From the NCBI GenBank assembly GCA_040751795.1, contig JBFMHR010000003.1, positions 64,001-128,000 on the forward strand: a DNA stretch of 64,000 bases, in the 5' to 3' direction. The notes under the pieces were generated by a model that saw only the letters and a list, made by a program, of their open reading frames with translations, was not told the DNA's origin and searched no databases. The DNA comes from Thermoplasmatota archaeon (GTDB lineage: Archaea > Thermoplasmatota > Thermoplasmata > UBA10834). This document shows, in pieces, positions 2,229 to 12,603 of this stretch. Each line of letters opens with the position of its first letter. The stretch's first letter is position 1. The position numbers were made by a program, and so were the translations under genes.

Positions 2229-3263
2229 ATGAAGGAGCTGCTCGAGGAGCTGATACGGGTGCCCGGGGTCTCCGGGTTCGAGGAGGACATAAGGGAGCGC
2301 ATCAGGGAGAAGGTCGAGGCCATGGGCCTCGTGGCCGAGGAGGACAACATCGGCAACCTGATGGTGACCGTCGGGGACAAGGGCCCCAAGGTCGTGTTCA
2401 TAGCCCACATGGACGAGCTGGGCCTCATAGTGAGCAAGATGGAGGCGGACGGCTCCCTCAGGATACGCAAGGTCGGGGGCATCGACGACCGCACCCTCGT
2501 GGGGAGGGTCGTGGAGATCAAGACGCAGAAGGGGACCGTCACGGGCGTCATAGGCCTCAAGCCCCCGCACCTGATGACCGAGAGCGACGACAGGAAGAAG
2601 GTCGTCGGGTGGGAGGAGGTCAGGGTCGACGTCGGCACCAGGACCAGGGCCCAGACGGAGAGGCTCGGCGTGCGGATCCTGGACCCGATGGTGCTCAAGA
2701 AGGACGTGACATTCATGGGCGACATGGTCTGCGCCAGGGGCGTGGACGACAGGGCCGGGTGCGCCGTGCTCCTGGAGGCGCTGGACCGGCTCCGCAAGAA
2801 GAGGCTCCCGCTGCGGCTCACCTTCGTCTGGAGCGTCCAGGAGGAGACGGGGCTCAAGGGGGCGAAGGTCGTCGGCTTCAGGATGACCCCCGACTACGTG
2901 TTCGCGATAGACACCATGACGACGACGGACGGACCGGGCCAGGGGGAGACCTACGAGAAGATCCTCCTGGGCTCGGGACCGGCCCTCCGCATGCTGGACC
3001 ACGCCGCGGTCGCCTCCCCGAAGCTGAGGAAGCTCGTGGAGGAGGTCGCCAGGGCGGGGAAGGTGCCCCTGCAGTACGGCACGGGAGGGGGCGCCACCGA
3101 CGGAGCGGTGATGCAGGACTTCGGCGCGCTCATGATGCCGCTGGGCATACCCATGCGCTACACCCACTCCCCGACCGAGTGCGCCAGCATGGAGGACCTC
3201 GCGCAGCTCTCGAGGCTCGTGGTGCTCATATCCGAGAGGCTCGCCAAGGGCGGCAAGGGATGA
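2229..3263 (+). CDS. M42 family metallo-aminopeptidase (TET-like)
   Basis: PGVSGFE, AHMDELG, DDRAG, VQEETG, GGGATDG, RYTHSPTE. Confidence 0.92.
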   Translation: MKELLEELIRVPGVSGFEEDIRERIREKVEAMGLVAEEDNIGNLMVTVGDKGPKVVFIAHMDELGLIVSKMEADGSLRIRKVGGIDDRTLVGRVVEIKTQKGTVTGVIGLKPPHLMTESDDRKKVVGWEEVRVDVGTRTRAQTERLGVRILDPMVLKKDVTFMGDMVCARGVDDRAGCAVLLEALDRLRKKRLPLRLTFVWSVQEETGLKGAKVVGFRMTPDYVFAIDTMTTTDGPGQGETYEKILLGSGPALRMLDHAAVASPKLRKLVEEVARAGKVPLQYGTGGGATDGAVMQDFGALMMPLGIPMRYTHSPTECASMEDLAQLSRLVVLISERLAKGGKG

Positions 3264-4330
3264 CCATGGCCTCCGACGCGGAGAAGGTCCTGACGGACCT
3301 GGTGCTGATGAGGTCCCAGGAGACCGACCCTATGGGGCCCATCGCAGACTACGTGGCCAGGCGCATGAAGGCCCTCGGGATGGACGTGAGGAGGCACGGC
3401 TCCGCCGAGAAGCCCTCGCTCGTGGGCGAGCGGGGGAAGGGCGGCGTGGTCCTGTCGGGCCACCTCGACACCGTGCCCATAGGCACCGGCTGGACCAGGG
3501 GGCAGGGCGAGGTCGTGGACGGCGCCATGTACGGCCGCGGCACCAACGACATGAAGGGCGGGTGCGCGGCGATGCTGCTGGCGGCCGAGGAGCTCGTGGC
3601 CGCCGATGTGCCTTTCGCGCTCTGCTTCACCACCGACGAGGAGACGTCCATGGACGGGGCGGCCGCCGCGGCGAAGGACCCCGCGCTCGGCGCGGCCCCG
3701 GCGGTGGTCGTTACCGAGGCCACGGAGTTCGACATCGTCGTCAGGGAGAAGGGGCTGGTGCAGTTCTCCATCACCACCAGGGGGAGGCCGGCCCACGCCA
3801 GCATGCCCCACCTGGGCGAGAACGCCATCGCAGGGATGGTGTCGGTGCTCCACAGGCTGGAGGACGTCTACAGGCCCCCCAAGGACCCGCTGGAGCAGAT
3901 GACCCTGTGCGTCGACACGATCAGGGGCGGGACCGCGATGAACGTCATACCCGACGAGTGCGTCGCCGAGGTCGACGTCAGGTACCCGCCGCACATGAGC
4001 ACCCAGGCGGTCCTGGACCTGGTCAGGAGGAAGGTCGGGGACGCCAGGTTCGAGGTCAAGGTCCTGCACGAGCTGGACCCCGTGGAGACGGAGGCGGACA
4101 GCGGGGCCGTCAGGACCATGAGGGACGTCGTAGGCCCGGGGGCGAAGGTCCTCTCGGTGCCCTACGCGACTGAGATGGTCATGTTCAAGGCCGCCAACAA
4201 GAGGCTCATGGTCTGCGGGCCCGGTGAGTCGGCCGGGTGCCACATCCCGGACGAGAAGATACGCGTCGCGGACGTGGCCAGGGCGGCGGAGATCTACACA
4301 GAGTACTGCTCCCGCATGGCCGGCGGCTAG
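3260..4330 (+). CDS. M20 family metallopeptidase/deacylase (ArgE/DapE-like)
   Basis: SGHLDTVP, GRGTNDMKGG, DEE, AHASMP, CHIPDE; ATG at 3260 overlaps the upstream TGA (ATGA). Confidence 0.9.
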   Translation: MTMASDAEKVLTDLVLMRSQETDPMGPIADYVARRMKALGMDVRRHGSAEKPSLVGERGKGGVVLSGHLDTVPIGTGWTRGQGEVVDGAMYGRGTNDMKGGCAAMLLAAEELVAADVPFALCFTTDEETSMDGAAAAAKDPALGAAPAVVVTEATEFDIVVREKGLVQFSITTRGRPAHASMPHLGENAIAGMVSVLHRLEDVYRPPKDPLEQMTLCVDTIRGGTAMNVIPDECVAEVDVRYPPHMSTQAVLDLVRRKVGDARFEVKVLHELDPVETEADSGAVRTMRDVVGPGAKVLSVPYATEMVMFKAANKRLMVCGPGESAGCHIPDEKIRVADVARAAEIYTEYCSRMAGG

Positions 4331-5616
4331 GGGAAGACCCTGCTGACCGTGCGCGGGTAGGGGATCGCGTCCCTGATGTGGTCCATCCTGCAGACCCACG
4401 TCAGGAACCTCTCGACGCCCAGGCCGAAGCCGGAGTGCGGGACGGAGCCGTACCTCCTCAGGTCGAGGTACCACGAGTACCTGTCCAGGCTCTCGCCCTT
4501 CTCCCTGATGCGCTCCATCAGGAGGGCGTTGTCCGTCTCCCTCTCGCTGCCGCCGATGATCTCGCCGAAGCCCTCCGGCGCCAGGAGGTCCGTGTTCTTG
4601 TAGGTCCTGGGGTCGTCCGGGTTCTCCTTCATGTAGAACGGCTTCAGCTCCTTCGGGTAGTTCATGACGAACATGGGGGTGCCGCTGTCCTTGGTCAGCT
4701 CGCGCTCCTCGACCGCCCCGAAGTCGGAGCCCCATTCCACGTCCAGGCCCTTCGCCTGGAGCCGCTCTATGGCCTCGCCGTACGGGAGCCTGTCGAACGG
4801 CGGCGCGACCCGCAGGAGGTCCGCGGGGTCCCGCTTGAACAGGCCGAGCTCGGCGCTGCAGTCCTTGGCGGCCCTGTGCAGCATCGCCGTCACGAGCTCC
4901 TCCTGGACCTTCATGTTCTCCGCGTTGTCGACCCAGGCTGCCTCCATCTCGAGGTGCCAGAACTCGGCGAGGTGCCTGGGGGTCCTGGACTTCTCCGCCC
5001 TGAACGACGGCGTGAGCGAGTAGACCTTCTCGCAGGAGTAGATGAGCGACTCGAGGTAGAACTGGGCGCTCTGCGACAGGTACGCTATCCTGTCGAAGTA
5101 CTTGATCTGGAAGAGCTGCGTGCTGTCCTCCGCGGCGACGCCTGTTATGATGGGAGGGTTGACCTCGACGTAGCCGTTCTCGTGGAACCAGTCCCTCGCG
5201 CCCATGAGGAGGGAGTCCTTGATCCGCATCGCGGCCGTCTGCTCCCTGGAGCGTATCCAGAGGTGGCGCAGGTCGAGGAGCAGCTCGGTGCTCTGGTACT
5301 CCGTGATGGGGAACGGCTCCGCCGGGCCCACGAGGGTGAACCTGGAGGCCCGCACCTCGAACCCGCCGGGGGCGCGCTTGTCCTCCGCCATGGTCCCCTC
5401 TATGATGGCCGATGATTCGATGCCCGCGTTGGTGGCCGCCGCGAAGTCCGGCTCCGGCACTGTGCCCTTCTTGACGGTGACCTGGACTATGCCAGAGGAG
5501 TCCCTGAGCACGGCGAACACGATCCCCCCGCTGCTCCGGGTCCGGTAGATCCAGCCCCTCACCTGCACGGCCTTCCCGACCATGTCCTCGGCGAGGACGT
5601 CCCTTATCGCGACCAT
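4327..5616 (-). CDS. asnS: Asparagine--tRNA ligase
   Basis: OB-fold N-terminus, FRAEKSRTPRHLAEFW, GEIIGGSERE, WYLDLRRYGSVPHSGFGLGVER; start taken at ATG 5616, about 25 nt below a TATA-like element. Confidence 0.95.
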   Translation of the reverse strand: MVAIRDVLAEDMVGKAVQVRGWIYRTRSSGGIVFAVLRDSSGIVQVTVKKGTVPEPDFAAATNAGIESSAIIEGTMAEDKRAPGGFEVRASRFTLVGPAEPFPITEYQSTELLLDLRHLWIRSREQTAAMRIKDSLLMGARDWFHENGYVEVNPPIITGVAAEDSTQLFQIKYFDRIAYLSQSAQFYLESLIYSCEKVYSLTPSFRAEKSRTPRHLAEFWHLEMEAAWVDNAENMKVQEELVTAMLHRAAKDCSAELGLFKRDPADLLRVAPPFDRLPYGEAIERLQAKGLDVEWGSDFGAVEERELTKDSGTPMFVMNYPKELKPFYMKENPDDPRTYKNTDLLAPEGFGEIIGGSERETDNALLMERIREKGESLDRYSWYLDLRRYGSVPHSGFGLGVERFLTWVCRMDHIRDAIPYPRTVSRVFP

Positions 5617-5682
5617 CCAGATGCTGAAGCCCCAATCCGAATATAAGCCCTTCGGACGCCGGCGCAACGGAGATATCGCGGC

Positions 5683-6174
5683 TTGGCGGTACCGCTGACC
5701 GTGAAGGTCAGGGAGGCGGCCCCCGAGGACCTGGGGGGCCTGATGCGCCTCGAGGAGGAGTGCTTCGGGGTCGAGAAGTTCTCGGAGGCCACCCTCATGG
5801 CGTTCCTCGTGAGGGAGGACGCCTTCGCCCTCGTGGCCGAGGAGGAGGGCGTCGTGGGCGCCGCCCTCTGCCTCTGCTCGAGGGGCAGGGCCGAGGGGAG
5901 GATAGCCTCGATAGCCGTCCTGGGGCGGGAGAGGAGGCGGGGGGTCGGGTCGCTGCTCCTCCGGGAGACGGAGGCGCGGCTCGAGGCGATGGGGGCCAGG
6001 ACCTTCGGGCTCGAGGTCGACGTCGAGAACGGGCCCGCGATAGCCCTCTACACGAAGCACGGCTACACGCTCAGGGCGATCGTGAGGGATTACTACGGCG
6101 CGGGCAGGCACGCGTACGTGATGGAGAAGTCCCTGAGCCCCCAGGGGTCGAGGGTCAGCGTCAGGCCTTCCTGA
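5683..6174 (+). CDS. rimI: RimI-like GNAT N-acetyltransferase
   Basis: IAV...RRRGVGSLLL, LEVDVENGPAIALY.KHGY, DYYGAGRHAYVM; start uncertain (TTG 5683 or GTG 5701). Confidence 0.8.
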   Translation: MAVPLTVKVREAAPEDLGGLMRLEEECFGVEKFSEATLMAFLVREDAFALVAEEEGVVGAALCLCSRGRAEGRIASIAVLGRERRRGVGSLLLRETEARLEAMGARTFGLEVDVENGPAIALYTKHGYTLRAIVRDYYGAGRHAYVMEKSLSPQGSRVSVRPS

Positions 6175-9100
6175 CGACCAGCTCGAGCGGCATCCTGTCG
6201 ACAGTCCACTTGACGGCGCCCTCCGCTGGCTCCGACCGCGTGAGCGCGCGCGCGTGCGTCTCGTGGCGTATATGCTCCATGTGGGACGAGATGGCCGCCT
6301 CGATGTCCGGGTGGGCGCTGTACTCCACGACCACCTCGTCCTCGAACTCCAGGCCCTGCTCCTTCCTCATGTGCTGCACCCGCCTGATGACCTCCCTCGA
6401 GAGACCCTCCAGCCTCAGCCTCCGGTCCACCGCGAGGGACATGTAGGCGTGGATGTCGCCGGCGCTGGCGTGGGCGTACCCGCCCTTCTGCCTCTCCGAC
6501 ACCAGGACGTCCTCCTCGGTGAGGTCGAAGCCGCCGAGCCGGACCTTGCCCGATGCGCGCAGGTGCCTGACCAGCTCGCTCCCGTCCACCTGGTCCAGGA
6601 GCCTGGAGACCTCCGAGGCGGACTCCTTGAACTTGGGCCCGAGGGTCCTGAGGTTCGGGGACACGGCGAACTCCACCATGCCCTCCCTCGACTCGACGCA
6701 CTCGACCCGCTTGACGTTCAGCTCCTCCGCGATCATCCTCTCGTACCTGCGCAGGACCCATGCGACGTCCCTGCTGGAGGCTATCACCGCGTGGTCCAGG
6801 GGCTGCCTCAGCTTCACGTTCGCACCCTGCCTGGCGGTCCTCCCGGCCTCCACCGCCTGCCTCACGGCCGCCATCTGCGACTCGAGGGGTGGGACCACCA
6901 TCGAGGCGTCCGCCCTCGGGAAGTCCTCGAGGTGGACGCACCCCTTCGGCCCCTTCAGGCACCTGTACAGCCAGTCCGAGAAGAACGGCGCCGCCGGCGC
7001 CATGATGAGGGAGAGGGATGCGAGGCACTCGTGGAGCGTCGCGTGCGCGGAGAACCTGTCCTCGGGGTCGTTCTCCATCCAGAACCGCCTCCTCGACCTG
7101 CGGACGTACCAGCCGCTCAGGTCGTCGACGAACAGAGTGGTCGCGCGGACCGCCGACTGCACGTCCATCGCGTCGAACGCCGCCCTCACGTCCCCTATGG
7201 TCGAGTTGAGCCTGGACAGGATCCACCTGTCGAGGTCGTGGGTCCGGTCCTTCGCCCCCTGGCCCGTGTACCCGTAGGCGTTGGCGTTGGACGAGTAGAA
7301 CGCGTAGAGGTTCAGGACGGTCGTGAGCGTGCCCACCATCGTCTTCCTCACGTCCTCCATCGAGAACCTGACGGGGCTGGACACCGTCGAGCCGAGGAGG
7401 TACAGCCTGGCCGCGTCTGCGCCCACGGAGCCGAACACCTCGGCCGGGGACGCCGCGCCGGCGGCGCCCGCCCCCATCGCCCTGCCCTTCTCGTCGAGCA
7501 GGCGCTCCAGCACCAGCACCGACCGGAAGGCGGGCGCGTCGAAGAGCAGCGTGCCCACGACGTGCTGCGTGTAGAACCAGCCCCTGGTCTGGTCCGACGA
7601 CTCGGTGATGAAGTCGACCGACCTGTGCGTCTCGAACTCGGCGATGTTCTCGAACGGGTAGTGGTACTGGGCGAACGGGGCGCAGCCGGAGTCGTACCAG
7701 CAGTCGAGCACGTCCTGCTCCCTGGCCATCCCCGCGCCGCACTCAGGGCAGCGGAGGCGGACCGAGTCCACGGACGGCCTGTGGAGGTCCAGGGGCTCGG
7801 GGAGCGGCGCCTCCGAGAGACGGGCCAGCTCCTCCACGCTCCCGACGCAGACCTCGTGGCCGGACGGGCACCTCCAGACCGGCAGCGGGGTCCCCCAGTA
7901 CCTGCTCCTGCTGACCACCCAGTCCTTCGCGTCCTCGAGGAACGTGCCGAACCTGCCCCCGCCGTAGTCGGTCGGCACCCAGCTGATCTCGGAGTTGAGC
8001 TCGGCCATCCGCTCCTTCGCGCCCGAGGCGCGCACGGACCAGACGTCCCTGGGCTTGTACATGAGAGGGCTGCGGCACCTCCAGCAGAACGGGCTGGAGC
8101 GCCTGGTCAGGCCCCACTTGAAGAGGAGGCCCTTCGCCTCGAGCATGCGCACGACCTCCGGGGAGGCGTCGCCCACGCTCCTGCCTGCGAGGTCCGGGAC
8201 CTCTGCGGTGAACCTGCCCGAATCGTCGACGGGGTCGAACGGGGCGACGCCCTCATCCTCCCCGATCTGGCGGTCGACTGAGGCGTATGGGGGCGACACG
8301 TGCATGACGCCCGTCCCCTCCGCCTTGGTGACCTCGTGCGAGCCCACGACCCTGTGGCCCCTGCCCCCGAAGTCACAGTACGCGAAGGGAGGCTCGTAGG
8401 CCATGCCGACCAGCTCGGAGCCGGCCATCGTCCTGACCGGCCGGGCCTCCGGGCCCAGCATGTGGGCCTTGTCCTCCGCGACGATGGCGCGCTCGCCGGC
8501 CACCTCGTACACGCCGTAGGCCTTCGATGCGTCGACCGCGAGGAGCGCGTTCGCGACCAGCGTCCAAGGCGTCTCGGTGTAGACCAGGGCCGACGCGCCG
8601 AGCGACGGGACCCTGAACCTCACCACGGCCCACCTGACCTCCGCCTCCTCGAAGCCGAGGGCGACCTCGTGCGTGCTGAGGGGCGTGCCGCACCTGGGGC
8701 AGTACGGCGCGACCTGGAGCGACTTCGACACCAGGCCTCTGGAGTGTAGCTGCTTGAAGGACCACCAGACGCTCTCGATGTACTCGTTGGACATCGTGAG
8801 GTAGGCATGCTCGTAGTCGATCCCGTATCCGAGCCTGCGGCTCATGTCCTCCCAGTCGGCCTTGTACCTCACGACGCTCTCGCGGCAGGCGTCGTTGAAC
8901 CCCCCGACCCCGAAGGCCTCGACCGCGCCCTTGCCGTCGATGCCGAGGGCGCGCTCGACCTCGATCTCGACCGGGAGGCCGTGGCAGTCCCACCCCGCGA
9001 TGAAGGGGAGGACATCGCGGCCGTTCATGATGTGGTACCTGAGGAAGGAGTCCTTCACGGCGCGCGTGAGCGCGTCGGACATGTCGGGGGGCCTGTTGGC

Positions 9101-9253
9101 CGTCGGGGGGCCCTCGCAGAACACCAGAGGCGCCCCGCCCCGCATCCGCTCCTTCACCCGGGAGAGGGTCCCCTCCTCTCGCCAGAGCGCGAGGACCTCC
9201 TCCTCGAGCTGGGGGAAGGTCTCCCCCGCGGGTTCCCGGTAGTACCTCTTCAT
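6161..9253 (-). CDS. ileS: Isoleucyl-tRNA synthetase-like protein with degenerate HIGH and KMSKS motifs (probably not a functional synthetase)
   Basis: EGPPTAN, GWDCHGLPVE, SRSRYWGTPLP, DCWYDSG, DQTRGWF, WYVRRSRRRFW, KLRQPL; HIGH position reads DMSD and KMSKS position reads AMGAG; GGAGGAG SD before ATG 9253. Confidence 0.9.
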   Translation of the reverse strand: MKRYYREPAGETFPQLEEEVLALWREEGTLSRVKERMRGGAPLVFCEGPPTANRPPDMSDALTRAVKDSFLRYHIMNGRDVLPFIAGWDCHGLPVEIEVERALGIDGKGAVEAFGVGGFNDACRESVVRYKADWEDMSRRLGYGIDYEHAYLTMSNEYIESVWWSFKQLHSRGLVSKSLQVAPYCPRCGTPLSTHEVALGFEEAEVRWAVVRFRVPSLGASALVYTETPWTLVANALLAVDASKAYGVYEVAGERAIVAEDKAHMLGPEARPVRTMAGSELVGMAYEPPFAYCDFGGRGHRVVGSHEVTKAEGTGVMHVSPPYASVDRQIGEDEGVAPFDPVDDSGRFTAEVPDLAGRSVGDASPEVVRMLEAKGLLFKWGLTRRSSPFCWRCRSPLMYKPRDVWSVRASGAKERMAELNSEISWVPTDYGGGRFGTFLEDAKDWVVSRSRYWGTPLPVWRCPSGHEVCVGSVEELARLSEAPLPEPLDLHRPSVDSVRLRCPECGAGMAREQDVLDCWYDSGCAPFAQYHYPFENIAEFETHRSVDFITESSDQTRGWFYTQHVVGTLLFDAPAFRSVLVLERLLDEKGRAMGAGAAGAASPAEVFGSVGADAARLYLLGSTVSSPVRFSMEDVRKTMVGTLTTVLNLYAFYSSNANAYGYTGQGAKDRTHDLDRWILSRLNSTIGDVRAAFDAMDVQSAVRATTLFVDDLSGWYVRRSRRRFWMENDPEDRFSAHATLHECLASLSLIMAPAAPFFSDWLYRCLKGPKGCVHLEDFPRADASMVVPPLESQMAAVRQAVEAGRTARQGANVKLRQPLDHAVIASSRDVAWVLRRYERMIAEELNVKRVECVESREGMVEFAVSPNLRTLGPKFKESASEVSRLLDQVDGSELVRHLRASGKVRLGGFDLTEEDVLVSERQKGGYAHASAGDIHAYMSLAVDRRLRLEGLSREVIRRVQHMRKEQGLEFEDEVVVEYSAHPDIEAAISSHMEHIRHETHARALTRSEPAEGAVKWTVDRMPLELVVRKA

Positions 9254-9375
9254 GGCAACAGACTCCTCCAAAAGGGGCTCTATCACATACTCGGCAATGG
9301 TGGCATGAATCAGCCAATAGCTATAATCAGGGACTGGCCAGCCGAGTACATCGGAGGGTTTGGAACGACGGTCAC

Positions 9376-9387
9376 GATATATAATAC
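9376..9387 (-). promoter_or_regulatory. Putative TATA box of the ileS-like gene
   Basis: Minus-strand GTATTATATATC about 125 nt upstream of the start codon. Confidence 0.5.
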
Positions 9388-9598
9388 CTAGTCGCGGGCG
9401 ATGGACGCTATTGGTCATCGGCGCTGCGGGCGCGCCCGGGCCCGTGACTAGGCGTGTCATGGCACGGCCCGCGCATGCTGGCCTGTTGCCAGGGCCGCAG
9501 GGCCTCTAAGAAAGTAATATATAACAGAGGACATATAGCGCGCCAGCGTGCAATCCATGGCCCGGGGTGGTGCCCAGGGCCAGATGGGGTGAACACGG

Positions 9599-9769
9599 AT
9601 GGAAGAGCCCTTGTGCAACGTGGAGTTTCTGAAGAGCAACGCCTCGTACGTGGCCAGAGTACAGAGCGACCTGGGCGGAGTGAGGGAGTACAGGAGCGCC
9701 TCGTTGGAGGAGATACTTGAGCAGGTGATCATAGACCTCCAAGAGGAGTTCGAGGGCGCGCGCCTTTAA
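9599..9769 (+). CDS. Small acidic hypothetical protein, 56 aa (not in ORF track)
   Basis: MEEPLCNVEFLKSNASYVARVQSDLGGVREYRSASLEEILEQVIIDLQEEFEGARL; GGGGTGA SD; BRE/TATA-like AAGAAAGTAATATATAA near 9510-9525. Confidence 0.75.
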   Translation: MEEPLCNVEFLKSNASYVARVQSDLGGVREYRSASLEEILEQVIIDLQEEFEGARL

Positions 9770-9892
9770 GGCCGCGCACGGGCATTGGAACGGCAGCGGG
9801 TCGACGGAAAGGGTTCGTCGGAGCCGAGTTCATCCCCGAGGGCGTCGGGAGCGGGCACCACAGGCCGAGGCGGACCCAAAGGGGGCGACTGA

Positions 9893-10234
9893 ATGGAAGA
9901 GAAGGACAAGAAGGAGTACGAGGAGATCATCTCGTCCTACTACGGCGAGGACCAGGTCGCCGCGCTCGTGAGCTTCAAGATAGACACCAAGGGCTCCGAC
10001 ACGGTGGCGCAGAAGATCGCGGGGTTCGACCACGTCGAGGACGTGTTCCTGGTGACGGGCGACACCGACATCATCGCCAAGGCCAGGTTCCCCAACTACG
10101 CGTCCCTGAAGAAGTTCATAGTCGACGACGTCGCGGGCATAGAGGGCGTGAAGGAGACCAAGACATTCATGGTCGTCACGACGTTCAAGGAGAGGGGCAA
10201 GGTCAGGGAGCCCGAAGAGGAGCAGAAGGAATAG
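9893..10234 (+). CDS. Lrp/AsnC ligand-binding (RAM) domain protein without HTH
   Basis: VEDVFLVTGDTDIIAK...IEGVKETKTF pattern. Confidence 0.85.
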   Translation: MEEKDKKEYEEIISSYYGEDQVAALVSFKIDTKGSDTVAQKIAGFDHVEDVFLVTGDTDIIAKARFPNYASLKKFIVDDVAGIEGVKETKTFMVVTTFKERGKVREPEEEQKE

Positions 10235-10278
10235 GCGCCCCCTGCTCACCGCGCAGCCATTCACAGAGGTGGTCGTTC

Positions 10279-10533
10279 ATGGATATGGAGACGAGGCTCA
10301 GGCAGATAATGGAGGTGTTGGACCAGCTTGCGGACGACAACTCCGTACCGAGGAACATAAGGCGCGGGGCGACCCAGGCCAAGGAGCGGCTCTCGCAGAG
10401 GAGCGAGGCGCTCGACATCAGGAGCGCCAGCGCGATCATGATACTCGACGAGCTGGCGAACGACCCGAACATACCGCTGCACGGGCGCACGCTGATCTGG
10501 AACATCATCAGCCAGCTCGAGACGGTCAAGTGA
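10279..10533 (+). CDS. UPF0147 family protein
   Basis: DNSVPRNIRRGA and LDELANDPNIPLHGRTLIWNIISQLE signature. Confidence 0.9.
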   Translation: MDMETRLRQIMEVLDQLADDNSVPRNIRRGATQAKERLSQRSEALDIRSASAIMILDELANDPNIPLHGRTLIWNIISQLETVK

Positions 10534-10538
10534 AACCT

Positions 10539-10610
10539 GCGGCTGTAGTCTAGTGGTTAGGACTGAAGCTTCCCAAGCTTTAAGCCCGGGTTCGAATCCC
10601 GGCAGCCGCA
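10539..10610 (+). tRNA. tRNA-Gly(CCC), no intron, CCA not encoded
   Basis: Acceptor stem GCGGCTG/CAGCCGC, anticodon arm GAAGC-TTCCCAA-GCTTT (CCC at 10572-10574), T arm CCGGG-TTCGAAT-CCCGG. Confidence 0.95.
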
Positions 10611-10629
10611 CTCATACCCCGCGGCCGGC

Positions 10630-11046
10630 TCATTGCAGGTTCAGCACCGCGACCTTCTTCTCCTGGTTCATCTCGCGGGTCGACCTGACGCCGTCCAGCC
10701 TCAGCACCCCTATCTCGTTGGACACCCAGGCCTTCCCCCTCAGGAGGTGGCCGCCGAATGCCCTGTGCTCCCTGTCCGCGACCGAAACGTGGATGTGCAC
10801 CCTGTGTTCGCCATACCCCGAGATCACGCCCTGTATCGACAGGAGCTCATGCGGCTCTGGAAATGCACGGCTGACGTACTCCCCCTTGTCGAAGTACCCG
10901 AGCTCGAAGTCGCTTATCATCCCCACGCCCGTGCATATGAGCATCGTCGACCGCGAGTCCCTGACCGACTTGAGTATCGACTCGATTATGTCCTCGCCGT
11001 CGTCGAGGCGGAGGATGTGCATCTGGCCGCTTCTGGACTGCTGCAT
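10630..11046 (-). CDS. PPC/DUF296 domain protein
   Basis: LRLDDGEDIIESI, ELLSIQG, HIHVSV..., FGGHL; GGAGAGG SD before ATG 11046. Confidence 0.88.
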   Translation of the reverse strand: MQQSRSGQMHILRLDDGEDIIESILKSVRDSRSTMLICTGVGMISDFELGYFDKGEYVSRAFPEPHELLSIQGVISGYGEHRVHIHVSVADREHRAFGGHLLRGKAWVSNEIGVLRLDGVRSTREMNQEKKVAVLNLQ

Positions 11047-11211
11047 CTGACCTCTCCCGTGCCTGTAGGCGCGTGCCACCCGAAGTACCTACGCAATGCG
11101 GGCGCGAGGGAACAGGCCCCGGTGCGCATCGGCCCGGTTCGTTGACCGGCGCGTCAACCGCGAAACCAGGTTCATATAGCGCCCTCCGGCTACGAAGATG
11201 CCGGTGAGGAA

Positions 11212-12603
11212 GTGGTGGCTCGGAAGCTGGTCATAGCGACGGTGGCATTCGCCATGCTCGCCTTCCCGATGACGACGCCCTTGGCCTCGGCCGACGGTAT
11301 GACGCACGTGTACGACGATGTCTACGATGACTGGAGCCTCTCGGCCGAAGAGACCCAGTACGGGATGATCAACCTGGTCGGAGGGTCGGAGAGGCTCCTG
11401 CTCGCCATAAGGGTCGACAGCGACACCCTGGCCTCGGCGGACCAGGCGGTGTGGATATTCACCGTCCCTGGGGACCCCGACCAGATCGAGGTCGACCTCA
11501 TGCCCGCGGTAAGGGAGATATCCGGCGAGCCGTTCTCGCACACGGCCAGGAGGGAGTTCTGCGAGAACCTCGTGATGGGCTACGGCACTCAGCTGTACCC
11601 CGTGGCCGCGCTCCTCCTCACGCCATCGGTGAGCCCGAGCCTCCTCCTGGGCGATGACTCGAAGGACTACGGACCCGGGGTCGAAGTCTCCACCCACATC
11701 GAGTCGCGCGGCATGACGATGGAGGTCGTCTCCGCCCAGTACGCCGATGCGCTGGAGGCGTACCTGCTGGGCCTGGGACTGGAGCTGGACGAGGGGTCGG
11801 CGTCCCTGATCGGCGAGTATGTCGGGGACGAATACGCCTTCGTCGTCTCGTGGATCTCGGACGTCGAACAGTTCAGTCTCGACGTGCCGATGCAGTACGA
11901 CCGCTCCACGGGCGAGTTCTACTACGAGCTCGGCCTCTTCGCCGAGTTCCCGACGGACCGTGTGTTCTACCCGCTCAGGCTGACGAGTGTCTACGGCGAG
12001 AGGGTGGTGCCCATGCTGCTGCAGGTCCTCGGCTTCGTTCAGACGGACGCCGGCGCCGCCGACTACGGCCCGCTGGACATCGCCGTCGAGCACAAGGTCT
12101 CCCGCTACTACTCCATCTCCCCCGAGCTGAGCCCGTTCTTCACGGCGGACGGGAACAGCACCGTCGACGAGTACATGTTCCTTCAGAACTTCAGGTACAC
12201 GGAGGTCGTGATCAAGGCCCCCTCGGAGCTGCTGGAGGCGGACCTCTGGATGGTGCCCGCGTCGTCCACCTCCCTGGACGTGCAGCTGTGGGTGACTGAG
12301 AACGGGTTCCTCGCCTCCCTGATGGTCGTCCTGGGGCTCTCCTCGCTGGCAGGGGTCGTCTCCGGGGCGCTCGTGTTCGCACCCCACCGCCCGGTCCTCT
12401 GGAAGTTCGCTGTCCTCGGGCTTGCGAACGTCCTCACGGTCGTCGGGCTCTGGTTCGCCGCCAGGACGCTCGAGGTGGAGCGCACGATGACGAGGCCCGA
12501 GGTGCCTGTCCCGGCCAGCCCCTACAGGGCGGACTTCCTGTTCGTCTACAGCTTCGTGTTCCTGGCCTCGGTGACCATGGTCCTCATGGCGTTCTGGGCG
12601 TGA
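11212..12603 (+). CDS. Secreted/membrane-anchored protein, DUF2330-like, with C-terminal TM helices
   Basis: N-terminal signal peptide, acidic extracellular region (AVWIFTVP, FYPLRLTSV), about 3 hydrophobic C-terminal segments. Confidence 0.6.
   Translation: MVARKLVIATVAFAMLAFPMTTPLASADGMTHVYDDVYDDWSLSAEETQYGMINLVGGSERLLLAIRVDSDTLASADQAVWIFTVPGDPDQIEVDLMPAVREISGEPFSHTARREFCENLVMGYGTQLYPVAALLLTPSVSPSLLLGDDSKDYGPGVEVSTHIESRGMTMEVVSAQYADALEAYLLGLGLELDEGSASLIGEYVGDEYAFVVSWISDVEQFSLDVPMQYDRSTGEFYYELGLFAEFPTDRVFYPLRLTSVYGERVVPMLLQVLGFVQTDAGAADYGPLDIAVEHKVSRYYSISPELSPFFTADGNSTVDEYMFLQNFRYTEVVIKAPSELLEADLWMVPASSTSLDVQLWVTENGFLASLMVVLGLSSLAGVVSGALVFAPHRPVLWKFAVLGLANVLTVVGLWFAARTLEVERTMTRPEVPVPASPYRADFLFVYSFVFLASVTMVLMAFWA

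Follow-up and report, generated by a model that had tools for sequence, protein, structure and literature searches.

The subject of this study is a gene on the minus strand of a 64,000-nucleotide (nt) stretch of archaeal DNA, hereafter called the window (Thermoplasmatota archaeon, assembly GCA_040751795.1, contig JBFMHR010000003.1, positions 64,001 to 128,000). It encodes a full-length paralogue of isoleucyl-tRNA synthetase (IleRS) of the IleRS2 type that has lost both ATP-binding signatures of class I synthetases. We consider it probable that the product is a pseudo-synthetase kept by selection, one that binds tRNA-Ile and/or isoleucine without aminoacylating and whose gene responds to the supply of Ile-tRNA. 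The open reading frame (ORF) is stop-free over 1030 amino acids from a homologue-supported ATG at 9253 to 6161, the open frame itself extending further upstream (6161..9460, minus strand), and comprises a Rossmann/HUP core, the CP1 domain, an anticodon-binding domain and a C-terminal DUF5915 domain. A Shine-Dalgarno (SD) sequence, GGAGGAG (9269-9263), lies 9 nt 5' of the ATG. At the position of the HIGH motif, directly after EGPPTANRPP, residues 57-60 read DMSD (9074..9085, minus strand), and at the position of the KMSKS motif residues 592-596 read AMGAG (7466..7480, minus strand, inside LLDEKGRAMGAGAAG). HIGH has lost its Gly and the His at positions 1 and 4, and KMSKS both of its Lys. An earlier note, made from the DNA letters alone, had described both altered motifs as well as the uninterrupted ORF with its SD sequence, and translation bears this out. 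In addition, Gly583, which is kept by 93% of the protein's own family, is a Glu in the window protein.

The signatures of a competent class I enzyme, HIGH (as HxGH or [A/G]xHH) and KMSKS, are both missing from the window protein. Such a double loss goes beyond chance, since by eye both motifs were unrecognisable in only three (P0234, P0235 and P0260) of 160 listed IleRS-like proteins outside its family. In excerpts of PMC10485003, mutation of the first His alone is given as costing about 1000-fold in several class I enzymes. From this motif chemistry we infer that the window protein is unable to activate isoleucine and has lost the formation of isoleucyl-adenylate. The three exceptional proteins are rare metagenome sequences (clusters of one or two members) that lack DQTRGWF as well as both motifs; the nearest genome relatives of P0234 are canonical GVHH-type IleRS2 proteins of Anaerolineae. 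They were rejected as members of the same kind because the isoleucine pocket is lost in them too.

The claim of the earlier note that the rest of the protein is conserved holds for all the landmarks it named, i.e. GWDCHGLP, three CxxC pairs, WYDSG, DQTRGWF, WYVRRSRRRFW and the C-terminal domain, but not for the CP1 editing site, which is eroded family-wide although His318 and Asp327 stay in the window protein. Here the Thr-rich peptide of CP1 reads YTETPWT (8561..8581, minus strand) and not the canonical WTTTPWT, while the two retained residues lie in the second editing motif, GTGVMHVSPPYASVD (8273..8317, minus strand). The protein passes the NCBIfam ileS equivalog TIGR00392 (686.4 bits, cut-off 621.4) and contains the Pfam domains tRNA-synt_1, Anticodon_1 and DUF5915 (the last with an E value of 1.3e-33). 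Its closest solved relatives are IleRS2 of Priestia megaterium (phmmer E 5.7e-223) and IleRS of Thermus thermophilus. An AlphaFold2 model from 94 sequences reached a mean predicted local distance difference test score (pLDDT) of 91.9 and a predicted TM-score (pTM) of 0.85, and Foldseek aligned it to the P. megaterium structure 8C8V with a TM-score of 0.94 and a root mean square deviation of 2.6 Å over 1037 columns. The sole low-confidence block of the model, residues 591-600 with a pLDDT of 65, is the former KMSKS loop.

A search of 5.8 billion proteins yielded 113 further clusters that are 57-84% identical to the window protein and, together with it, give 114 family representatives; the sources that name these clusters all call them isoleucine–tRNA ligase. 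At least 990 residues are present in 111 of the 114. KMSKS is found in none of them (0/114). Of 111 representatives, 66 retain H.GH and six have lost the His of HIGH at both positions, 1 and 4. In a FastTree phylogeny the representatives group in a single clade (support 100) with a long stem; broken variants of HIGH turn up dispersed on many of its branches, and the KMSKS-loop sequence varies freely. This distribution fits a single basal loss of KMSKS followed by relaxed constraint on HIGH. Within the family, the motifs are most strongly altered in the window genome; related degenerate forms (HMGD/AMRAG and SIAD/ALRPG) are found in close relatives, whose sequences come from other assemblies.

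Orthologues of the window protein are present in all 24 other genomes of the window organism's family, which we designate f1. Simple pairwise NG86 estimates of the ratio of non-synonymous to synonymous substitution rates (dN/dS, omega), with dS values of 0.5-0.8 in several pairs, were 0.07-0.23 for the window gene and 0.05-0.18 for the canonical IleRS gene of the same genome pairs; the value for the window's own assembly against its nearest relative was 0.18. Omega was at most 0.24 in all five protein regions (one region of one pair had no valid dS), and the Rossmann core had the lowest or tied lowest value in six of seven pairs. The paralogue is more diverged than the canonical copy in 135 of 136 genome pairs, with a Poisson distance only 1.44 times as large in the median. 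Contigs from four public sequencing runs of four studies, about 90-97% alike, span the gene; among the differences listed, the only ones that change the ORF length are an insertion and a deletion that form a pair, separated by 4 nt, in a single contig from one of the runs. That the gene is a decaying pseudogene or a sequencing or assembly artefact might be suspected from the extreme motif changes of this one genome, but is hardly credible in view of the near-complete length of almost all family members, the related degenerate motifs in other assemblies, the contigs of the four runs and a dN/dS well below 1. Orthologues in every relative and substitution ratios close to those of the canonical copy show selection, not decay or artefact, as the earlier note had supposed; the check it proposed, for clade-wide motif loss at dN/dS below 1, likewise agrees with the uniform absence of KMSKS and the repeated erosion of HIGH.

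Which residues are under this selection was assessed by comparison of the 114 family proteins with 128 proteins of the IleRS2 type in which both motifs are present; these were taken from the 149 best representatives of a library of 1.8 billion proteins and from six further clusters and five genome loci. Of 140 positions conserved to at least 90% in the canonical set, 118 have the canonical residue in 80% or more of the family. The 22 lost or weakened positions comprise two of HIGH (54, 60), six of the KMSKS loop (592-595, 599, 603), nine of the CP1 editing site (225, 227, 228, 231, 308, 317, 318, 320, 324), two of the CP1 hinge (385, 387) and three family-specific replacements (Y201F, P545S, L563Q). 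Retention in the family is 82-100% for Gly48, Pro49, Pro50, Asp89, Trp519, Glu551, Gln555 and Trp559, which we take to be the isoleucine/adenylate pocket, for Trp715, Arg718, Arg721 and Arg723, presumably with roles in the anticodon domain, and for Arg808, Arg816, Asn846, Arg953 and Arg963 of the C-terminal part. Post-transfer editing by CP1 is associated with the Thr-rich peptide, a His and an Asp. The TTT peptide is found in none of the 114 representatives and His318 in 18, Asp327 being kept in 112; the genus-level subclade of the window protein is unusual in retaining His318. Judged by these alignments, both catalytic centres are eroded, while erosion has spared the amino-acid pocket and the regions that read the tRNA.

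The same comparison speaks to the idea that the protein is a free-standing editor which deacylates Val-tRNA-Ile in CP1 and needs no ATP. The window protein and its subclade keep His318, Asp327, Asn235 and two of the three Thr, and the tRNA-binding domains are conserved. We nevertheless regard an editor as quite improbable: besides the family-wide loss of the TTT peptide and the rarity of His318, positions 317 and 320 are changed in most members, CP1 is the least conserved region and in several pairs ranks first or nearly so in omega, and the canonical archaeal-type IleRS of the relatives has its own editing site intact.

All 24 other f1 genomes contain two IleRS-like genes. One is the orthologue of the window protein (57-84% identical); the other, about 33-36% identical to it, is of the archaeal type and reads DGPPYTTGSIHIGTAWNK and AMSKS at the two motifs. 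Single-copy genomes of neighbouring families carry the same archaeal-type sequence, and because they rely on it, this copy is a working enzyme. In the window's own assembly (53 contigs, 92.78% complete) no second ileS was found with the window protein, Pfam PF00133 and the archaeal-type IleRS of three relatives as queries; these searches turned up only four other class I synthetase-like frames, taken to be ValRS, LeuRS, MetRS and CysRS by length and similarity. The neighbours of canonical ileS in two relatives with long contigs are, however, collinear with positions 393483-403988 of contig C12 of this assembly, which is 404090 bases long, and the synteny breaks off at the contig end, just where canonical ileS should come next. 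In four genus-mates canonical ileS is likewise cut by contig ends. Since the neighbours run up to the end of C12 and every relative has the gene, the most probable location of canonical ileS is a gap in the assembly, as judged from synteny on one side. A second, canonical ileS, for which the earlier note had called, thus exists in all relatives but not in the assembly at hand, where the contig end is the likely cause.

It is very improbable that the window protein serves, despite its odd motifs, as the working IleRS and in this genome the sole one. The assembly offers no other ileS and the protein scores above the TIGR00392 cut-off, but against this stand the canonical copy in all 24 relatives, the collinearity of its neighbours up to the end of C12, the replacement of HIGH His/Gly/His, of both KMSKS Lys and of Gly583, and the cost of the first-His mutation alone that is stated in excerpts of PMC10485003. 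The search for tRNA genes did not help here: tRNA-Ile was not among 34 tRNAs found by ARAGORN in the assembly, which is uninformative because the search covered intron-free tRNA genes of an incomplete genome.

Whether the situation in f1 is singular was addressed in a class-wide sample of 401 genomes that are at least 85% complete. Three unpublished genomes of family f11 (G104, G257 and G197) contribute one match each to the tally; no specific statement made here depends on them. Within the sample, only f1 has copies that are at least 57% identical to the window protein, in 25 of 25 genomes with the window's own counted. Several further families of the class also have two IleRS-like genes, and in seven of the eight such genomes outside f1 whose motifs were read (from f9, f10, f12, f16 twice, f24 and f28) the outcome is the mirror image: IleRS2 is canonical and the archaeal-type copy (L069-L071, L079, L080, L086, L087) is without KMSKS. 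The HIGH pattern is also gone in six of these seven, the f28 copy keeping HMGH; L070 and L071 fall below the ileS cut-off with 461 and 334 bits. In the eighth genome (f21) both copies look usable. No genome among those with motifs read has two clearly canonical copies of these two types. This mirror-image outcome in sister families argues for a selected role of the 'dead' partner over slow decay.

A quick IQ-TREE tree separated the two IleRS types with a support of 100 and placed the motif-less f1 copies inside the IleRS2 side (100), while the other motif-less copies grouped weakly on the archaeal-type side (80, long branches). By this tree and the FastTree phylogeny, by the DUF5915 domain and by its best PDB matches, which are IleRS2 enzymes, the window protein is assigned to the IleRS2 clade. 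Clade names follow bioRxiv 10.64898/2026.02.03.703510, none of whose sequences are in our trees; the excerpted text of that preprint defines IleRS-A, IleRS1 and IleRS2 and does not mention motif-less members. As a separate observation, the archaeal-type IleRS proteins of the class (L039-L071) read H[ILVM]GT and [AP]MSKS even where they are the sole IleRS, and by eye they have a C-terminal extension of about 100-150 residues with helix-hairpin-helix-like repeats and a CxxC...CxxC ribbon.

The second line of evidence comes from the region upstream of the gene, where the 120 nt 5' of the start codon are conserved across the family more strongly than the protein. A family-conserved TATA-like box, TATTATATAT (9377..9386, minus strand), ends 25 nt before the ATG of a short upstream ORF (uORF); the mRNA therefore probably begins at the uORF or close to it. 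The uORF, MYSAGQSLIIAIG (9310..9351, minus strand), has 13 codons and a TGA and stops 56 nt before the main ATG; three of its codons specify isoleucine (ATT 9327-9325, ATA 9324-9322, ATT 9318-9316). It was found at 21 of 21 family loci, at 20 by script and at the remaining one (G012) by eye, with three to four Ile codons among 13-14, placed at codons 8-12, and with a distance of 54-57 nt between its stop and the main start. ATT, ATC and ATA are interchanged between genomes, at least one ATA being present in all 21. This is the pattern of a leader peptide, a short ORF rich in cognate codons that is conserved as codons rather than letters. By chance, short ORFs that pass the same filter have a density of 0.004 per 330 nt (51 on 4.1 Mb of strand in the assembly). 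The codon-usage background is rough, being taken from all long ORFs including spurious frames of this GC-rich genome.

Two helices in the leader are supported by paired changes. In helix H1 the uORF start codon and codons 2-4 (9341..9351, minus strand) pair with a stretch that begins 14 nt after the uORF stop (9285..9295, minus strand); 95.6% of cells are paired and three of eight pairs are changed on both sides, compared with 24-39% in slid controls (whole tested structure). Directly 3' of it follows hairpin H4 (9255..9284, minus strand), in which a CCCC pairs with the G's of the SD sequence and the T-run 9274-9271 forms the loop. Here 87.9% of cells are paired and three of twelve pairs are changed on both sides (slid controls 33-50%, whole tested structure), figures that are favoured by the choice of H4 from the minimum-energy fold of the window sequence itself. 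The fold of the leader has a minimum free energy of -33.7 kcal/mol (z -2.16). An inner helix, H3 (columns 36-41 with 59-64), was poorly supported (48% of cells paired) and was rejected, as was a small hairpin, H2, with only modest support; a C/D-box or kink-turn reading of GATGA...CTGA was dropped because these letters are the start and stop of the uORF. The leader is not covered by any known RNA family: apart from tRNA-Gly and a miRNA match attributable to chance, Rfam had no hit in 3000-12000 at E up to 1 or in 9230-9910 at E up to 10. No second copy with both H1 arms together exists elsewhere in the assembly or at the archaeal-type ileS loci.

The leader is not restricted to motif-less genes. 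Among 50 regions (10 + 40) upstream of catalytically canonical IleRS2 genes of other families, 15 contain a short ORF of the same form (M-S/N-S/W-A/G...) with a run of three to five Ile that ends a few tens of bases before the gene: in seven of seven regions of f16, five of five of f9, two of two of f18 and at one locus of f21 (L037, L081, L082, L084, L102-L106 and L130-L135). Ten other regions passed the uORF filter but were not counted, their ORFs being far upstream or unlike the leader and in AT-rich DNA. The distant leaders preserve a helix in which the uORF start pairs with sequence 3' of the uORF stop, although in other letters, e.g. AACUGGGC/GCCCAGUU or AUGAGCU/AGCUCAU, and U-rich tracts and then the SD sequence follow the helix before the canonical IleRS2 genes of f9, f16, f18 and f21. 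Canonical archaeal-type ileS genes have no Ile-run uORF in f1 (0/20), and in other families two of 11 archaeal-type ileS genes have one. Because it is found before canonical IleRS2 genes and before none of the archaeal-type ileS genes of f1, the leader is by this distribution a feature of ileS2 that is older than the catalytic loss and was inherited and kept by the motif-less copy. Two observations stand apart from this question. The Ile-run leaders of the canonical IleRS2 genes are in themselves candidates for leader-peptide control of an archaeal synthetase gene. At L084 (G066, f21) a third kind of IleRS-like gene (DGPITANNPMGVHHAW..., AMHRS) lies beside a canonical archaeal-type copy and also has an Ile-run uORF, MSSCTIIIIIGR.

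Taken together, these data suggest the following model. Charging of tRNA-Ile would be done by the separate archaeal-type IleRS, whereas the IleRS2-type pseudo-synthetase would form no isoleucyl-adenylate. Selection on the isoleucine pocket, on the anticodon-binding domain and on the C-terminal tRNA-binding domain suggests that it most likely acts by binding tRNA-Ile and/or isoleucine and not by catalysis. By analogy with leader peptides, scarcity of Ile-tRNA-Ile would let the ribosome stall at the Ile codons of the uORF, upon which the leader structure would open and the gene would be switched on, the direction of the response being assumed from the analogy. The product would then be a starvation-induced factor that binds tRNA-Ile or isoleucine and that could hold, protect or hand over tRNA-Ile or report the isoleucine status. 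Of the roles proposed in the earlier note, a sensor or binder of isoleucine or tRNA-Ile fits the kept pocket, the invariant residues of the tRNA-binding domains and the Ile-codon leader, while that of an editor is the weakest on account of the lost CP1 residues.

An alternative that we consider unlikely is that the retained pocket performs ATP-free chemistry, for instance a transfer of isoleucine from Ile-tRNA-Ile to another acceptor in the manner of SbzA. It would account for the Rossmann core being the most constrained region, for the retention of pocket residues in 97-100% and for the family-fixed replacements Y201F, P545S and L563Q in or beside the core, and SbzA, in the excerpts of PMC12945691 and PMC9437257, is a precedent of an IleRS paralogue that uses Ile-tRNA-Ile. 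SbzA, however, retains HYGH and AMSKA and belongs to a biosynthetic cluster (excerpt of PMC12945691), whereas the window protein is without both motifs, its neighbours are housekeeping-like with no acceptor pathway evident, and the KMSKS loop varies freely.

Several points weigh against a pseudo-synthetase that acts by binding under control of the leader. The conserved isoleucine pocket would be equally expected of a residual or altered catalyst, and 46 of the 114 family members combine H.GH with K..[KR] at the place of KMSKS; some weak activity might persist in basal members, and function might differ within the family. The missing second ileS in the window's own assembly counts on the same side, as the gap argument that meets it is based on one-sided synteny, and so does the simple pairwise method behind dN/dS at the given dS values. 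In the leader, neither an alternative (anti-sequestering) pairing nor a terminator/antiterminator pairing was identified, and none of the seven motif-less archaeal-type copies has an Ile-run uORF upstream, so that the leader may be merely inherited. A broader version of the model is doubtful: that Thermoplasmata with two IleRS always keep one catalyst and one motif-less protein, whichever paralogue it may be, for a required non-catalytic function, e.g. the sequestering or hand-over of tRNA-Ile in isoleucine shortage, which in f1 would be under the first archaeal Ile-codon leader-peptide control and amount to a stringent-like response free of (p)ppGpp.

Synthetase-like proteins with functions outside translation are known, among them HisZ, EpmA, LeuRS-I and SbzA. 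With the IleRS2 enzymes of P. megaterium (8C8U, 8C8V, 8C8W) and T. thermophilus (1ILE) the window protein shares the order of domains including the C-terminal DUF5915. IleRS2 enzymes have HxGH or the swapped [A/G]xHH in addition to KMSKS according to excerpts of PMC10485003, whereas in the window protein both His, the Gly and the Lys residues are absent from these places, and its Thr-rich editing peptide is altered. LeuRS-I of Sulfolobaceae and LeuRS2 of Halobacteria are likewise second copies of an archaeal class Ia synthetase that persist next to a functional one and charge tRNA barely or not at all, as stated in excerpts of the review PMC9437257. There LeuRS-I is described as having a disrupted CP1 and no aminoacylation while still making leucyl-adenylate, so it differs from the window protein, which has lost the ATP motifs and belongs to another synthetase and another lineage. 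A leader uORF, present at the window gene, is not mentioned for LeuRS-I or LeuRS2 in these excerpts, which give IleRS2 and SbzA as the duplicates of IleRS. SbzA of Streptomyces resembles the window protein in being a full-length IleRS paralogue, and uses the IleRS pocket for a function other than charging. Its HYGH and AMSKA motifs, weak charging and antibiotic gene cluster (excerpt of PMC12945691) have no counterpart in the window protein, whose motifs are lost and whose conserved neighbours are housekeeping-like.

For the leader, the classic leader-peptide attenuators of E. coli offer a comparison. Bacterial attenuators and, in excerpts of bioRxiv 10.1101/834739, the leaderless poly-Cys short ORFs of mycobacteria have a short ORF of cognate codons at the transcript start, as is probably the case here, where conserved RNA helices come after it. 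The window leader differs from bacterial leader-peptide control in that it is archaeal and in that its second helix hides the SD sequence, no terminator/antiterminator pair having been identified. Among the literature matches listed there was no archaeal case of a leader-peptide or attenuation uORF; if the leader works as proposed, it would be the first example of leader-peptide control in Archaea. As it is shared with true IleRS2 genes, it provides a testable hypothesis for the timing of protein synthesis.

In full-text literature searches for IleRS paralogues, archaea and pseudoenzymes we found no description of a motif-less full-length IleRS, in agreement with the earlier note, which knew of no IleRS pseudoenzyme of this type. 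A full-length IleRS without both ATP signatures and the editing peptide, with constrained pocket and tRNA-reading domains, is thus apparently undescribed. With more than 100 sequence clusters its constraint can be mapped residue by residue. As databases label such proteins isoleucine–tRNA ligase, completeness and metabolic inferences that count them as ileS can err.

The neighbours conserved in f1 are a class II synthetase-like ORF, a GNAT acetyltransferase, a RAM-domain protein and UPF0147; they are not beside any other IleRS copy retrieved, hence no functional link is drawn. The GNAT gene (5683-6174, plus strand) converges on the IleRS-like gene with an overlap of 14 nt, and all 23 family loci that extend to the 3' end of the latter contain it. 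The window protein also matches NF040702, the NCBIfam family of IleRS-GNAT fusions, through its IleRS part only. Beyond the GNAT gene lies the class II synthetase-like ORF (4327-5640, minus strand). On the other side an ORF of 56 codons (MEEPLCNVEF..., 9599-9769, plus strand) diverges from the IleRS-like gene with its own TATA-like box and a leader of about 75 nt; its DNA is almost invariant across the family and it has no Pfam match. It is followed on the plus strand by a stand-alone Lrp/AsnC ligand-binding (RAM) domain protein (9893-10234), the UPF0147 protein (10279-10533) and tRNA-Gly(CCC) (10539-10611), all three of which are present in all family loci that reach that far.

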